This document shows positions 31,242 to 36,794 of a stretch of 50,058 nucleotides of DNA, piece after piece. This DNA comes from Promethearchaeati archaeon (lineage in GTDB: Archaea; Asgardarchaeota; Heimdallarchaeia; JABLTI01), in the NCBI GenBank assembly GCA_013166835.1, contig JABLTI010000008.1:1-50058 (forward strand). Direction: 5' to 3'. The notes below the pieces were generated by a model. The model did no database searches, was not told the origin of the DNA, and was given only the letters and a program-made list of their open reading frames with translations. The position numbers were made by a program, and so were the translations under genes. The stretch's first letter is position 1, and each line of letters starts with the position of its first letter.

Positions 31242-31973
31242 TTGTCTGCCAGGGTACCATTAAAAGAAATAGCTCTTAATTGCAAAGGCTGTAATAAAGA
31301 TATCAATATACCCATCTATGTAGACGATCTTAAAACCCAGGTGGGTGGGTTATGGCAAGTATCATTCTTACATGACGACCATGTAATTACTTTACTTCTA
31401 GACAAAAATCTATCATTACGACAGCATCGTGCATCTACAATTGCACGAACAAGTAGAGAAGAAGCTTCTGCAAGGGCTTCTGTTGGCGCAACCGCACAGG
31501 CCGCCTCAACATCAGCAGCTGCAGCAGCAACTCCCAGTCCTAGAGCAGAGGCAAGAGCAAGCATTACTCTTATGCTTAAAACATTCGGAAATACTCTCGA
31601 GTATGTGATGAAACCCGTAATGGTAGGAACGACAATCATCGTTTCTGGCGATCTTGCTCTTATGGAAATCGCTATAGCTACTTTGAAGATGTTTGTCCAT
31701 AAGAAAGAATTACGAGTATGTTGGTTTACTGAAACTTTTGTTGATCCAAGAGATTACGATATTATTGGAATTGCACCAGAACTACGCGATTACTACGAAA
31801 CTGAAGTGAATTTAGCAATTGATCAAAAGAAAGTCATCAATGGTGAAGAGTGCGATTATTGTCGTAAGGTCTTGAAAGGTCTAGATAAGATGAATGAAGC
31901 TAAAGCCGCTAATGAGCTAAAAGATCGAATAAAAAACGTTTATAGAAGTTTATTATGGATGCATCAAATTTAG
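31242..31973 (+). CDS. Hypothetical protein: CxxC...HxxH zinc-binding domain, Ala-rich linker, DENN-core-like domain
   Basis: CKGC...HDDH, then AAAAATPSP, then an alpha/beta domain with TIIVSG and DIIGI. Confidence 0.65.
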   Translation: MSARVPLKEIALNCKGCNKDINIPIYVDDLKTQVGGLWQVSFLHDDHVITLLLDKNLSLRQHRASTIARTSREEASARASVGATAQAASTSAAAAATPSPRAEARASITLMLKTFGNTLEYVMKPVMVGTTIIVSGDLALMEIAIATLKMFVHKKELRVCWFTETFVDPRDYDIIGIAPELRDYYETEVNLAIDQKKVINGEECDYCRKVLKGLDKMNEAKAANELKDRIKNVYRSLLWMHQI

Positions 31974-32115
31974 CTAAAGAATTAGCTATTTGGTGTTCTT
32001 CCATGTTATTTTTATTTTTATGTGTTTTAATTTGCAATAATTTTTCATTCAAGAAAACAACCAATTAGCTAATATATCATAAAAGCTTAAATGCATTTTG
32101 TAGAGTTACTTTGTT

Positions 32116-32529
32116 GTGAAAAAGATGGCATTAACAATTAGTAATCTCCCTTTAGCTTTTGTACTCGCAATTGCATTTGCATTTGGGTTATTTCTATTTG
32201 CTTTCATATTCATCTTATTAAGAAAACCCTTCAGGAAAAAAGTGAAGGATGAAGAAGCAAAAAAACTCAAGCAAAAAATTGTTTCCACTAAAGCGAGTGG
32301 TAAATATCTAAATCGATATTTGTCATATGCTATGTATATTGTGGTTTTTGGTATAATTGCTGTTTTCCTAATGCTGTCATTTTTCACAATTAATGATATA
32401 GTTGCTTTAAGTGATATGTGGCCATTTATTTTCGTTGTTGTTGTTTTAATCTTTTGTAGTCTTGTAATTGTTGAAAAAGTTAAGACAGAGAGCAAGAGAA
32501 CTGTACAGAGAGATATGCGCAGATTGTGA
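32116..32529 (+). CDS. NuoA-like 3-TM membrane subunit (divergent)
   Basis: TM1, long loop, then RYLSYAMYIVVFGIIAVFL, resembling NuoA RYY-x2-A-x2-FV-x-FD-x-E-x2-FL; first gene of the operon. Confidence 0.55.
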   Translation: MKKMALTISNLPLAFVLAIAFAFGLFLFAFIFILLRKPFRKKVKDEEAKKLKQKIVSTKASGKYLNRYLSYAMYIVVFGIIAVFLMLSFFTINDIVALSDMWPFIFVVVVLIFCSLVIVEKVKTESKRTVQRDMRRL

Positions 32530-32873
32530 AGGAGAATGAGGAAATGTCCAATAACGAACGTCCTAAGAAAAGAATCGACCAGTGGTTTATCCGGGGGATT
32601 GGTGTAGTTACTGCAAGTATTTTTCTCACTGTCATGACTTTCACTCTATTGGATTTACAACAAGGTTTATTCTTTACTGAAGGAACACAATCCGTAGGTT
32701 TAGATTACATTCTTTTAATACAGCAAATTGGCCAATATCTTTGGACATTTCGTGTGCTAGATTTAGTCTTAATTTTGATCATTTTAGTTTTAATTATAAT
32801 TTCAACAACTTATCTGATGAATTTTAAAGCACAAGTAATTAGAAGAAATCAAGACAGAGGGAGGTACAGATAA
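32526..32873 (+). CDS. NuoJ C-terminal / MnhB-like membrane subunit (divergent)
   Basis: IGQYLWTFRVLDL motif before a TM; start overlaps the previous stop (GTGA). Confidence 0.55.
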   Translation: MKENEEMSNNERPKKRIDQWFIRGIGVVTASIFLTVMTFTLLDLQQGLFFTEGTQSVGLDYILLIQQIGQYLWTFRVLDLVLILIILVLIIISTTYLMNFKAQVIRRNQDRGRYR

Positions 32874-33280
32874 TGCTTGATTGGACTTCTTTCTTTCCCT
32901 ATACACTTATTGCTTCTCTAGTGCTCTTTGCAATCGGTATTTATGGAATCATTACTTGTAAGAACTTTTTACGTGCTGTTTTTGGCATAGAAATTTTATT
33001 ATTGACTGCTAATTTATTGCTTTTGTCTTTTGGTTTAGGAAGTAGTGAAGAAACATCTTTGATATCTGATCCTTTTGCACAAACTCTCTCCTTAATGATT
33101 ATAGCAGTTAGCGCAGTCTTTCTTATACTTGGTTCTTCAATAAACAAACTTTTACAAGAAAACAATGATGAGATTCTAGATTTTAATTTTGAAGCTGAAG
33201 ATGCCCCCTTTAAAAAATCAGAAGAACAAGAAGAGCAAACAACATCACCTGATACAATCAAGGAGGATGAGGAAGAATGA
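32873..33280 (+). CDS. NuoK/MnhC-like subunit
   Basis: LFAIGIYGII-x2-KNFLRAVFGIEILL-x2-ANL and DPFAQTL; TAATG coupling. Confidence 0.8.
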   Translation: MLDWTSFFPYTLIASLVLFAIGIYGIITCKNFLRAVFGIEILLLTANLLLLSFGLGSSEETSLISDPFAQTLSLMIIAVSAVFLILGSSINKLLQENNDEILDFNFEAEDAPFKKSEEQEEQTTSPDTIKEDEEE

Positions 33281-35196
33281 GTGGATTACTTTTAGCAGCA
33301 CTTCTGATTATAATTCCTGCTGCTGGAACCTTAATTGGTTTGTTTCTATCTCAACTCGAAGATTCTGTAGCAGCTGAAGGCAAAACACGAGATTGGATGC
33401 TATTTATTTTGATCTTTTTACCTACCGCAATAATTTCCATAGTTTTGCTTACATATCTTAGGAGTAGCAGTTCTTTCTCAATAGCTTGGCTACCTGGTAT
33501 TGAGATTGGATTGCATTTAAACAGAACTTCCATTATTTTTGCCTGTATAATCGCAAATTTCAGTGCCTTAATTGCTCTTTATTCTATATCATTCATGTCG
33601 TTCGATAGGTATCGAACCCAATACTGGTTCTTCTATCAATTAACATTAGCTGCAATGATGATGGGAATATTCTCAAATAATCTCTTCTGGTTATTTGGTG
33701 GATTTGAGGTTGCATCAATAGGAGCTTTCTTTTTAATTTCTCATTGGCATCGTAAATCTGGAGATGAAGGTCAAAAAGCAGGGAACGCAGCTATTCGTTA
33801 CCTAATTATTAGTATCTGTGGTGATATTTTTCTCCTTATTGGGTTTGGATTAATCCTGGTAGCTTTCAACACTTCAATTTTAGGCGAGCTATTCGACAAA
33901 TGGGTAGCTGTACCGGTTAAAATTATCGGAAGATCAAGTACTTCAACTAGATCAATTATCACATTTTTCTTAGTTTTTGGAGCATTGATTAAATCAGCTC
34001 AAATACCAATTTTGTTGTGGCCTTTAGGTGGCAAAAGTAAAGATTATGATTTAGCGAAGTCACCTATAACCGTTGCAGCATTTTTGGTCACAGTTACAGT
34101 CGGTAATATTGGCTTGTTTATTTTGAGCGTTTTTCAACCAATCTTTTCTACGACCATTACTGAAATTGGAACTGGGGTTCCTCTCTTTAGTGCTATGCCA
34201 TTCGTTCTCGTAGGATGGTTTGCAATTTTAACACTTATTATTGCCATAGCGTTAATGTTAACAGCTGATAATATCAATCGGATAGCGATATCTGCTGCAA
34301 TAGCTCAACTCAGTTTTTCATTCATAGGTTATAGTGCTGGAAATTCAATAGGTTATGCTTCATCAATTTTTCATCTAGTAACTAGTATACCTGCTAGTAT
34401 AGCAGTTTTTGTTCTCATGGGGATGATAATAGAATCAATTCGAATAAGGAATATATCGCGCCTTGGAGGATTAAAAAATAAATATCCCTCGTTATTCATA
34501 TTTGGTTTGATAGCAATTCTAAGCTATTCAGGATTCTTTCCATTTGGAACTCATTTCAGTCTAGATATGATCTTTCAAGCACTTCTCACAAGTAGCATTC
34601 CATCCAGTAAGGTTATCCTCGCGATTAGTTTTATCTGTTCTATTTTACTTATTTTTGCTATAACAAAACCATTCATGAAGCTATTTAATGGGAAATTTGA
34701 AGGAGATTTATCAACTCGTCAATTAAACAAAAACTCAATTTCTGTGGAGTTAATGGCTCTAGTAGCGTCTGCTCTATCAGGTTTCTTATTAATATTCGTG
34801 GGATATCCAAATCCGAAATTTGTTTCACTCTTACTTGATCAAAAGGTATTTTTGGGATATGATTCACCATTATTTAGCAATTGGCTTGTATCAATATTGT
34901 ATTTAATTTTAGGAATTGGTATTTTCATTTCAACAATGATTTTATATCGTGATGGAAAAGCTACTGTGTTAGATAAAATTAGAAACACGAAATTTGTAAG
35001 CTTTACCAAGAAATTTTTCGCAAATGGAATGTACCTTGATAATGTATATGAAGCATCTGTATTCCAACCTATTAATTTCTTAAGTAGATTTTTCGCTTGG
35101 ACTCGAATCAAGGCACCTTTTGCTAGTATAATATGGGCTGTGCTAGCTTTAGCATTATTAGTATCAATATTTGCAGTACTAGGAGGAGGAATATAA
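33277..35196 (+). CDS. NuoL/MrpA-like antiporter subunit (partly degenerate)
   Basis: NNLFWLFGGFE, GDIFL, IKSAQIP, IFHL, LGGL, and C-terminal FFANGMYLDNVY amphipathic segment; ATGA coupling. Confidence 0.85.
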   Translation: MSGLLLAALLIIIPAAGTLIGLFLSQLEDSVAAEGKTRDWMLFILIFLPTAIISIVLLTYLRSSSSFSIAWLPGIEIGLHLNRTSIIFACIIANFSALIALYSISFMSFDRYRTQYWFFYQLTLAAMMMGIFSNNLFWLFGGFEVASIGAFFLISHWHRKSGDEGQKAGNAAIRYLIISICGDIFLLIGFGLILVAFNTSILGELFDKWVAVPVKIIGRSSTSTRSIITFFLVFGALIKSAQIPILLWPLGGKSKDYDLAKSPITVAAFLVTVTVGNIGLFILSVFQPIFSTTITEIGTGVPLFSAMPFVLVGWFAILTLIIAIALMLTADNINRIAISAAIAQLSFSFIGYSAGNSIGYASSIFHLVTSIPASIAVFVLMGMIIESIRIRNISRLGGLKNKYPSLFIFGLIAILSYSGFFPFGTHFSLDMIFQALLTSSIPSSKVILAISFICSILLIFAITKPFMKLFNGKFEGDLSTRQLNKNSISVELMALVASALSGFLLIFVGYPNPKFVSLLLDQKVFLGYDSPLFSNWLVSILYLILGIGIFISTMILYRDGKATVLDKIRNTKFVSFTKKFFANGMYLDNVYEASVFQPINFLSRFFAWTRIKAPFASIIWAVLALALLVSIFAVLGGGI

Positions 35197-35198
35197 TC

Positions 35199-36794
35199 AT
35201 GGCAGGAATTTTGATTAACTTCACTATGGTTTTCCTTGTTATTCTTCCATTTACTATTGCAATTATTATATTTGGCTTCAGAAAGTGGTTAAAGAATTTT
35301 GCAGGTGAAATGGGCGCAGCTACAATAATTGCTGTTGTAGCATTAATTGCGGCATTAAATTATGGCTTAAAATCAAATCCTTCTACAAATATCCTATATG
35401 GAATTTATAATACATCTCAAGGAGCAGATTACGGTCCACCTCTTGGTGTGCAATTAAGGGTTGATGCTTTTACAAGTTGGTTCCTTATCTTCATAAATAT
35501 TGTAATTCTTTTCATCTTCATTTATGAATCAACAAAACAAAGAGGGAAGCCAGAAGGACCTATCCATATAAGTTTGCTTCTGTTCATAACTGCAGGGATA
35601 AATGGAGTAATGATTGCTAACGACTTCTTTACTTTATTTTTAAGTTGGGTCATAATTGGGATTGCTGTCATCTCACTAATTACTTTTAGACGACGTGCAA
35701 TTGATATAAAAGAAGGTGGGATTAGATCATACATATTAATTGGTTTAAGTATTTCATTCTTGCTTCTTGCTGTCATTTTATGCTACGGTATCTTTGGTAC
35801 CTTGAATTTTGATGTAATTAAAAACGATGATACAATATTATCTTCTTCCCGATTACAAAACCTAAGTCTAGTTCTCTACACAATAATAGCTCTTGTTATA
35901 GTGGGTTTTGGATTGTTTGCTAATATTTTCTTACTAAATCTGTGGATGCCTAAAGCCATTGAACATTCTCATGCCAGTACACAAGTATTCACAACTGGTA
36001 TTACTAGCAGTATTGCTTTGCTTTCTATTTTCAAAGTACTGTTTTCCTTCTTTAATCCCGAAAGTTTTGCAGGAATTGCATATCCTCAAGTATTAGCGAT
36101 TATAGGCATACTTACTGCATTAGAAGGAGCACTTCTTATTATCTATCAAGTAACAAGAAAAGATGAAGATAAAGCTAGTTTAACGAAGATTATAATCTAT
36201 TCTGCTATAGTAAATATAGGAATTGCACTCACAGGGATTTCATTAGGGGGTTTCACTGTCGAGGTTGAAGGCGAAGGCATCTTTAATTTAAGTGACATAA
36301 TCGGGTACAGCGCTTTGCAATTAATTAATTTAGCAATAACTATGTTTCTAACTCTTACTGCGAAAGAACGATTGGTTTCAAAGAGAGGGAGTGAAAAATT
36401 GTTTGCTTTAAGAGGTTCTGCAAAAGATTATCCATTGACTATTTTCATGTTAATTATCGGTTTATCCTCAACCATTGGTTTACTACCCACTTTTGGTGGA
36501 GTTAATATCTATATGCTTGTTTTTTCATTGATACAATTGAATTTTATTGGATATGCCATTTTCATAGTTCTTATTCTAGTGCTGTTGTTAATTGGTTATC
36601 TAATTGTATTCAAATTCCTAATATTTGATAAACCAACAAAAGAAACGAGTTTTGGTAGTGGTGGTATTAGTCAGGATCTCTCGTTGCATACATTCCTAGG
36701 ACTCTTAATAGCTCTTGGATTAATTGTATTAGGGATTGTACCATCCATTATTAGTAACTCTATTCTAGAAAACACTAGCTTAATGCTGCCTTAG
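35199..36794 (+). CDS. MrpD/MbhH/NuoN-like antiporter subunit (degenerate)
   Basis: GPPLGVQLRVD, NDFFTLF, GTLNF, LWMPKA, KIIIYS and GLLP; strong AGGAGGAGG RBS before the ATG at 35199. Confidence 0.85.
   Translation: MAGILINFTMVFLVILPFTIAIIIFGFRKWLKNFAGEMGAATIIAVVALIAALNYGLKSNPSTNILYGIYNTSQGADYGPPLGVQLRVDAFTSWFLIFINIVILFIFIYESTKQRGKPEGPIHISLLLFITAGINGVMIANDFFTLFLSWVIIGIAVISLITFRRRAIDIKEGGIRSYILIGLSISFLLLAVILCYGIFGTLNFDVIKNDDTILSSSRLQNLSLVLYTIIALVIVGFGLFANIFLLNLWMPKAIEHSHASTQVFTTGITSSIALLSIFKVLFSFFNPESFAGIAYPQVLAIIGILTALEGALLIIYQVTRKDEDKASLTKIIIYSAIVNIGIALTGISLGGFTVEVEGEGIFNLSDIIGYSALQLINLAITMFLTLTAKERLVSKRGSEKLFALRGSAKDYPLTIFMLIIGLSSTIGLLPTFGGVNIYMLVFSLIQLNFIGYAIFIVLILVLLLIGYLIVFKFLIFDKPTKETSFGSGGISQDLSLHTFLGLLIALGLIVLGIVPSIISNSILENTSLMLP

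Follow-up and report, generated by a model that had tools for sequence, protein, structure and literature searches.

The window, by which we mean the whole 50,058-nucleotide stretch analysed here, lies on contig C156 of a genome (G000, estimated to be 85% complete) from the Heimdallarchaeia, the archaeal class considered closest to eukaryotes. At 32116-36794 it carries five plus-strand open reading frames (ORFs) in the order A'-J'-K'-L'-N', which resemble NuoA, NuoJ, NuoK, NuoL and NuoN of the complex I membrane arm (Table 1). The original prediction, made from the letters alone, described an intact but disarmed complex I/Mrp membrane arm that lacks most ion-pumping residues and has no redox module. 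The five uninterrupted reading frames with overlapping or adjacent junctions on which that description was built are borne out by the ORF listing and the sequence. The genes are translationally coupled, with GTGA at 32526-32529 joining A' and J', TAATG at 32871-32875 joining J' and K' (with GGAGGT upstream) and ATGA at 33277-33280 joining K' and L'. The stop codon of L' (TAA, 35194-35196) is followed by TC and then by an ATG at 35199; because of this TAA-TC-ATG junction and the ribosome-binding site AGGAGGAGG (35181-35189) ahead of the ATG, we place the start of N' at 35199 and not at the ORF finder's 35133, and the orthologues concur. A' starts with GTG at 32116, with an alternative ATG at 32125.

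Table 1. Coordinates of the membrane-arm genes, their candidate partners and other features mentioned in the text. Positions without a contig or locus name refer to the window.
Feature	Location	Strand	Basis or remark
A' (NuoA-like, 137 aa)	32116..32529	+	hhalign NuoA profile and gene order
J' (C-terminal NuoJ half, 115 aa)	32526..32873	+	hhalign NuoJ and shared motif
K' (NuoK/MrpC-like, 135 aa)	32873..33280	+	PF00420
L' (NuoL-type antiporter-like, 639 aa)	33277..35196	+	PF00361, NF005141
N' (NuoN/MrpD-type antiporter-like, 531 aa)	35199..36794	+	PF00361
D' (NuoD-like)	G000:C197:12406-13554		PF00346, 138 bits
X (six-helix, 210 aa)	G000:C197:15887-16519; also L050:1590-2186		3' of H'
Complete 11-subunit operon (C11)	G000:C11:62-10606	minus
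Upstream AT-rich intergenic stretch	31974..32115	+	TTAAAT box 32088-32093, read directly from sequence
243-aa gene	31242-31973	+	upstream of the arm
Archaeal PolD large subunit (DP2), 1654 aa	36879-41843	+	carries an intein
NuoI-profile match	594-1838	minus	E=1.3e-8
344-aa inserted gene	G000:C197:13576-14610	minus	N-x-S/T sequon-rich, hydrophobic ends
~900-aa upstream gene	L023:12562-15282, L024:12223-14922, L027:12322-15024	A' strand

The two large subunits both match PF00361 above the Pfam cut-off (L', E=1.1e-23, 84 bits; N', E=3.6e-18, 66 bits), N' being of the NuoN/MrpD type. L' also aligns with the NuoL model NF005141 over 7-611, into the C-terminal region, at 148 bits against a cut-off of 556. 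K', which ends in an acidic tail, lies above the cut-off for PF00420 (E=1.5e-12, 47.5 bits) and matches NuoK in hhalign with a probability of 97%. A' is a three-helix membrane protein with no Pfam match and no significant match in a PDB profile search. In hhalign it matches the NuoA profile with a probability of 65% (E=6e-5) over its residues 66-112, i.e., NuoA transmembrane helices (TM) 2-3; NuoA is the best of the seven subunit profiles, the remaining ones reaching ≤1.5%, and the NCBIfam NuoA model gives only E=0.33. Its position and length fit NuoA of the short-arm operons (order A-J-K-L-N) discussed below, and this weak profile match and the gene order together suggest, at a low level, that it is the NuoA homologue it was first named as. 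Gly replaces the NuoA TM2 Asp in A', at a position that varies among orthologues, while the basic C-terminal tail is conserved in the orthologue alignment. J' also has no Pfam match and nothing significant in PDB sequence and profile searches. Against full-length NuoJ, hhalign gives a probability of 47% (E=2e-4) over columns 80-156 of 166, and J' shares an LW-x2-R-x2-D-L motif with short-arm NuoJ; its invariant residues are R16, W20, F21, R23, W73, R76 and D79. With only two hydrophobic segments, which align to TM4-5, J' corresponds to the C-terminal half of NuoJ and not to the whole subunit as first read: TM1-3 are missing, and with them the TM3 of a full-length five-helix NuoJ.

The original prediction had raised the question of a separate canonical operon, and G000 holds one, a complete and fully charged 11-subunit operon on contig C11 encoding A, B, C, D, H, I, J1, J2, K, L, M and N. 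With both Ni-Fe CxxC motifs present in its NuoD and a NuoJ split into two genes, the C11 complex therefore appears to be a [NiFe]-hydrogenase in the shape of complex I and not a quinone reductase.

What defines antiporter-like subunits is a buried chain of Glu, Lys and His residues, and single mutations in this chain cripple complex I. To examine the chain, seven orthologues each of L' and N' were aligned with the in-genome L, M and N, with L and N of sister families and with the PDB chains 6cfw_H (for N') and 6z16_A (for L'); the E. coli residue numbers in the original prediction are its own. The test was then extended to all family members found among 5.8 billion proteins (28 for N', 31 for L'). 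The reported absence of the central-axis residues from N' is upheld against both 6cfw_H and the in-genome paralogues, and it extends to the whole family: the TM5 Glu, TM7 Lys, TM8 Lys and TM12 Lys are each found in 0/28 members, and TM11 has neither His nor Lys. No compensating charges were seen in the hydrophobic segments of N', where replacement buried charges had been proposed as something to look for. Two inherited residues are the only conserved charges left there: Asp142, where TM5 begins, and Glu309, a TM9 residue that short-arm NuoN also has. The family is isolated, with five full-length and three fragment representatives at ≥274 bits and the next at 155 bits among 1.84 billion representatives. 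In the nearest outgroups examined the chain is present, with the TM5 Glu, second TM11 His, TM11 Lys and TM12 Lys/Glu in 10/10 and the first TM11 His in 9/10. An AlphaFold2 model of N' (predicted local distance difference test 83.2, predicted TM-score 0.88) has TM7 and TM12 as broken helices and reaches Foldseek TM-scores of ~0.8-0.88 against MrpD, MbhH and NuoN chains, so that N' is predicted with confidence to retain the full antiporter-like fold.

L' has been stripped in part. In G000 it keeps the TM5 Glu, TM6 Asp, TM7 Lys, first TM11 His and TM12 Asp and has lost the TM8 His, TM8 Lys, second TM11 His and TM11 Lys; its TM12 Lys is Leu. The TM8 and TM11 losses hold throughout the family, in which each of these four residues is kept in 0/31 members. 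The reported loss of the TM12 Lys does not hold as a family trait, since Lys or Arg is kept in 24/31 (the others being five Leu and two Tyr) and the change to Leu is limited to the subclade of G000. Of the other residues, the TM7 Lys and the TM6 Asp are each kept in 30/31, the TM12 Asp in 28/31, the TM5 Glu in 25/31 and the first TM11 His in 18/31. In neither N' nor L' is the central axis of protonatable residues of a complex I or group-4 hydrogenase arm complete. The statement that K' keeps one of its two glutamates was correct for the TM2 Glu, which is present in G000 and kept in 5/7 orthologues (Val in G008 and G010, Asn in G011). The second NuoK Glu, which had been scored as lost, is equally missing from the functional paralogues, and its absence from K' is for that reason not a loss.

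The arm is a property of one family (f1, 12 genomes), which we compared with 29 genomes from five other families of the class. N' orthologues are present in 12/12 f1 genomes (two are cut by contig ends) and in 0/29 of the others, in which the search yields only ordinary NuoN at ≤29% identity; no ordinary short-arm NuoN was found in the f1 genomes searched. Orthologous operons, whose existence the original prediction had left to be checked, carry all five arm genes intact and in order in 6/6 relatives despite 40-65% sequence change. The arm adjoins PolD in 5/5 of the relatives' loci that extend that far, and 11/11 N' orthologue matches are without internal stops. The ratio of nonsynonymous to synonymous substitution (dN/dS) was calculated by the Nei-Gojobori method (NG86) for two pairs, G008 versus G010 and G000 versus G003. 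In the first pair it was 0.20 for A' and 0.12 for J'; for the two pairs, respectively, it was 0.11 and 0.13 for K', 0.16 and 0.13 for L', and 0.12 and 0.11 for N'. For comparison, the C11 operon gives 0.06-0.28 and PolD 0.09 in G008 versus G010. The arm genes are under purifying selection. Over longer spans they have diverged about twice as much as the C11 subunits (35-60% versus 53-89% identity in the same genomes). The proposal that selection acts on a repurposed complex is supported by dN/dS values of 0.11-0.20 and intact ORFs in 6/6 relatives, and the same two results rule out simple decay, which the original prediction had named as the finding that would overturn it.

The absence of a redox module is correct within the window, where no NuoB/C/D/H/I-like ORF was found. 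The sole NuoI-profile match there is one of >20 generic ferredoxin-domain matches in the genome. Genome-wide the statement is incomplete, as D', H' and X on contig C197 and C' on contig C204 are co-inherited with the arm. D' is NuoD-like, and it and its seven orthologues are without all four Ni-Fe cysteines, which 8/8 other aligned NuoD-like proteins keep; D' accordingly does not have the two CxxC Ni-Fe motifs of a group-4 large subunit, and it has also lost the N-terminal GPQHP motif. Orthologues of D' occur in 11/11 genomes of the genus. H' is a divergent NuoH (PF00146, 62 bits) with orthologues in 12/12 f1 genomes. Its conserved buried charges are E125, D127, D168 and K299. The FEGD motif, Lys299 and the C-terminal arginines of NuoH are retained, as is an acidic residue, Asp168, where YEIP has Glu; the QxRxGP motif has gone, and so have the TM5-6 loop glutamates. 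C' is a truncated, N-terminal NuoC-like protein of 140 aa (PF00329, 30 bits) found in 11/12 f1 genomes, with one weak match among the 29 others.

X, which lies beside H', has Asp25 and Asp154 within hydrophobic helices, invariant in 32/32 sequences, and is more conserved between genera than H' (64% versus 34% identity to G011). The 35 homologues found are all ≥59% identical, and the named records are mostly Heimdall/Asgard metagenome-assembled genomes. X belongs to no Pfam family and has no hhalign match to any Nuo subunit; an Atlas search gave unnamed archaeal clusters only, and a fold search gave only generic helical bundles with Z ≤10.3, below the level that is meaningful for helical proteins. 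D', H' and X are neighbours in 7/7 relatives' loci and in G001, and H' and X are neighbours in the second genus (G011). In the two pairs above, respectively, dN/dS is 0.16 and 0.26 for D', 0.18 and 0.12 for H', and 0.15 and 0.12 for X.

Two observations concern the surroundings of these genes. Between D' and H', G000 and G003 alone have a surface-protein-like gene of 344 aa. C' is always flanked by a divergently transcribed gene for a Cys/His-containing protein of 93-113 aa (L066-L076), and in 5/5 relatives' loci listed the next gene encodes a protein of ~430-460 aa whose N terminus is very acidic.

A second NuoB or NuoI could not be found in the 85% complete genome by profile searches, which for NuoB included hmmsearch --max. 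In 5/5 genomes the PF01058 matches consist only of the C11 NuoB and the small subunits of soluble hydrogenases. NuoI-like ferredoxin ORFs on C202 and C240 were considered as NuoI and rejected, as they lie beside a formylmethanofuran-dehydrogenase-like gene. MrpE, MrpF and MrpG (PF01899, PF04066 and PF03334) have no match in the genome, at the same completeness, and no MrpB-like domain was found in the arm by Pfam. In composition the arm is not Mrp-like. A haem-copper oxidase was found in none of five genomes of the genus.

The closest known relatives of the arm are in sister Heimdall families, whose short-arm complex has the gene sets H-A-J-K-L-N and C-D-I-B, the neighbouring genes including hyp genes and one for a maturation protease. 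Complexes of this kind, which are complex-I-like [NiFe]-hydrogenases of group 4, have been described for Heimdallarchaeia in the available part of bioRxiv 10.1101/2024.07.04.601786. In the loci that we compared (L059, L060 and L064), the short-arm complex shares with the arm the gene order A-J-K-L-N and the number of two antiporter-like subunits. Its L has, like L', a 7-residue insertion in the W-L-P...A-M loop and a short TM5-6 loop; its N has, like N', an insertion, Asn at the TM7 His position and a TM9 acidic residue; and its D has the 2-residue deletion of D'. In contrast to the arm, it has NuoB, NuoI, NuoC, a four-cysteine NuoD and a full-length NuoJ, and its L and N are fully charged except for the TM7 Lys of N. 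The arm system is without B and I, has a truncated C' and only half of a NuoJ (J'), and is spread over three loci. N' clusters with short-arm NuoN in the tree (Shimodaira-Hasegawa-like approximate likelihood ratio test 99), with the caveat of a long branch; the placement of L' is not resolved, and the stem branches are long (1.6 substitutions per site for N', 1.21 for L'). The NuoH tree gives an unresolved three-way split and is uninformative on the origin of H'. Judged by these shared features, the arm is a descendant of a short-arm complex-I-like group-4 [NiFe]-hydrogenase.

Other known systems fit less closely. Complex I/NDH-1 has homologous subunits, L' matching NuoL models over nearly their full length and N' having the fold of NuoN. 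Unlike complex I, however, the arm has two antiporter-like subunits, an axis that is absent in N' and interrupted in L', no NuoJ TM1-3 and no N or Q module with cofactors. N' and L' have MrpD and MrpA of the Mrp antiporters (cation:proton antiporter family 3, CPA3) among their best matches in structure and sequence, but the genome yields no MrpE/F/G, and N' is without the conserved Lys and Glu of MrpD; on sequence grounds the arm is derived from a hydrogenase arm and not from an Mrp operon. The energy-converting hydrogenase-related (Ehr) complexes are, as far as the available part of PMC6349859 describes them, relatives of group-4 hydrogenases without Ni-Fe ligands that keep electron-transfer subunits and are believed to link ion translocation to a redox reaction in the cytoplasm. 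The arm system resembles Ehr, in that account, in having antiporter-like subunits and a large-subunit homologue, D', without Ni/Fe-binding residues; it differs from Ehr as described there in that the searches gave no dedicated Fe-S subunit (NuoB or NuoI) and the residues of the proton path have gone too.

We consider it somewhat probable that the short-arm hydrogenase has a degenerate descendant here, with its membrane arm encoded by the five genes, and that the parts of this descendant form a cofactor-less, non-pumping assembly in the shape of complex I. From their co-distribution and common origin we infer that the dispersed parts C', D', H' and X assemble with A'-N' into one membrane complex. 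In f1 this complex would be genetically dispersed, with the arm beside PolD, D', H' and X together on one contig and C' on another, and chemically stripped, with a D' that has no Ni-Fe ligands and no second copy of NuoB or NuoI. Redox-driven pumping of the complex I/membrane-bound hydrogenase (MBH) type would be excluded for this set on residues and gene content, because it has no electron path of its own, N' is without charges, NuoJ TM1-3 are absent and the K' Glu is dispensable. A function other than redox-driven proton pumping is therefore the probable reason for keeping the arm, which is probably not an orphan. The retained role may be architectural, as a scaffold or docking platform, or may consist of a residual non-redox ion path through H' (E125, D127, D168 and K299), L' (TM7 Lys and TM12 Lys/Arg-Asp) and X (Asp25 and Asp154). 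More tentatively, since we rate this further step as unlikely, the whole machine (C', D', H', X, A', J', K', L' and N') might be a cofactor-free, charge-poor "pseudo-complex I" with a mechanical or architectural function or built around an ion-binding X.

Several points weigh against the assembly that we favour. The identities of A' and J' depend on weak profile scores. A diverged NuoB or NuoI could lie in the unassembled remainder of the genome or beyond detection, and the genome has many generic ORFs with 4Fe-4S ferredoxin domains. D' was not found in G011, the sole genome of the second genus, in which H' is 505 bases from the contig end. X may be an unrelated conserved neighbour, and co-distribution does not count as independent evidence when all the genomes are related members of one family. 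Lastly, most L' proteins keep the Glu-Lys pair and the TM12 Lys/Arg-Asp and H' keeps most of its membrane charges, so that some ion movement could still be possible.

The last point leads to an alternative that we regard as doubtful, namely, that the arm works by itself or together with H' and X as an independent secondary ion transporter or channel, for instance an antiporter with changed specificity or a cation leak, which uses the charges left in L', H' and X in place of the classical central axis. The residues that L' keeps in most members (the TM7 Lys and TM6 Asp in all but one, the TM12 Asp, the TM5 Glu and the TM12 Lys/Arg in fewer), the four buried charges of H', the two invariant aspartates of X and the far better conservation of X than of H' would all suit such a device. 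However, the residues that link the half-channels (TM8 His/Lys, the second TM11 His and the TM11 Lys) are absent from 31/31 L', N' is charge-less in 28/28, and the L' TM5 Glu, the L' TM12 Lys and the K' Glu are each dispensable in some lineages, G000 included. MrpE/F/G are not found, and the retention of D' and C' would be left unexplained.

It is improbable that the primed subunits instead swap into the C11 complex, using its NuoB/C/D/I, as a non-pumping or regulated variant, or act as assembly chaperones for it. Swapping of the NdhD and NdhF paralogues in cyanobacterial NDH-1 is a precedent, all arm-bearing genomes examined for a second operon carry one of the C11 type, and profile searches find no NuoB or NuoI belonging to the arm. 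Yet D' and C' would be redundant in a hybrid, while D' is under selection in both pairs and C' persists in 11/12 genomes; D' has no Ni-Fe site to receive electrons; and the primed set comes from another type of complex and is 20-30% identical to the C11 subunits. It is because D' and C' are retained that the arm would belong to a complex-I-shaped assembly of its own and not be a spare part for C11. That the genes are decaying, functionless remnants or an annotation artefact of long ORFs is very improbable, and pseudogene decay is rejected on dN/dS and ORF integrity: the fast evolution, the long stem branches and the loss of catalytic residues would fit decay, but dN/dS is 0.11-0.26 in two independent pairs, the five ORFs stay intact through extensive sequence change with no internal stops in the orthologue matches, translational coupling and ribosome-binding sites are retained, and the fold of N' is confidently predicted.

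What has been lost here naturally comprises all chain residues of N', most of those of L' and every metal site of the head, and eight or nine genes are nevertheless intact and under purifying selection across the whole family. If the "pseudo-complex I" reading is correct, it would constitute a natural experiment in which complex I architecture and proton chemistry are separated. Should the parts assemble, the complex I/hydrogenase superfamily would have its first pseudoenzyme that comprises a whole complex, and with it a ready-made control for the contribution of architecture alone (the lateral helix, the broken helices and the NuoH-NuoD interface). In the literature searched we met no account of an arm that is stripped of its charges or its cofactors. 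There is also a practical caution: when Asgard genomes are scored, "Nuo" or "Mrp" genes should not be taken for respiratory capacity. In public records the proteins described here carry the name "proton-conducting transporter membrane subunit".

Upstream of A', the AT-rich intergenic stretch with its TTAAAT box may serve the operon as an archaeal promoter. A scan for bacterial-type promoters, which is not applicable to archaea, gave 27 sites against 27.7 expected, i.e., no enrichment. Beyond this stretch lie the 243-aa gene and a major facilitator superfamily (MFS) transporter. The 243-aa protein matches no Pfam family; it has a CxxC pair at both ends and an Ala/Ser-rich middle and is 73-84% conserved across the family, and only a 133-135-aa C-terminal form was found in G005 and G011. 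It was considered as a member of the system and rejected, since a ~900-aa gene separates it from A' in 3/6 relatives. This larger gene lies 26-58 bases 5' of A' on the same strand in G005, G009 and G006, and its N terminus appears by eye to be roadblock/longin-like. It has no homologue in G000 or in the loci of G008, G010 and G011, and because of its absence from G000 it was not counted as part of the system either. On the other side of the arm, the downstream gene originally called polC is renamed as the large subunit of the archaeal PolD. The long, intein-carrying form of the window is matched in G005, G008 and G010, while the proteins of G009 and G006 are ~1166 aa and align in two pieces, so that they are without the intein.

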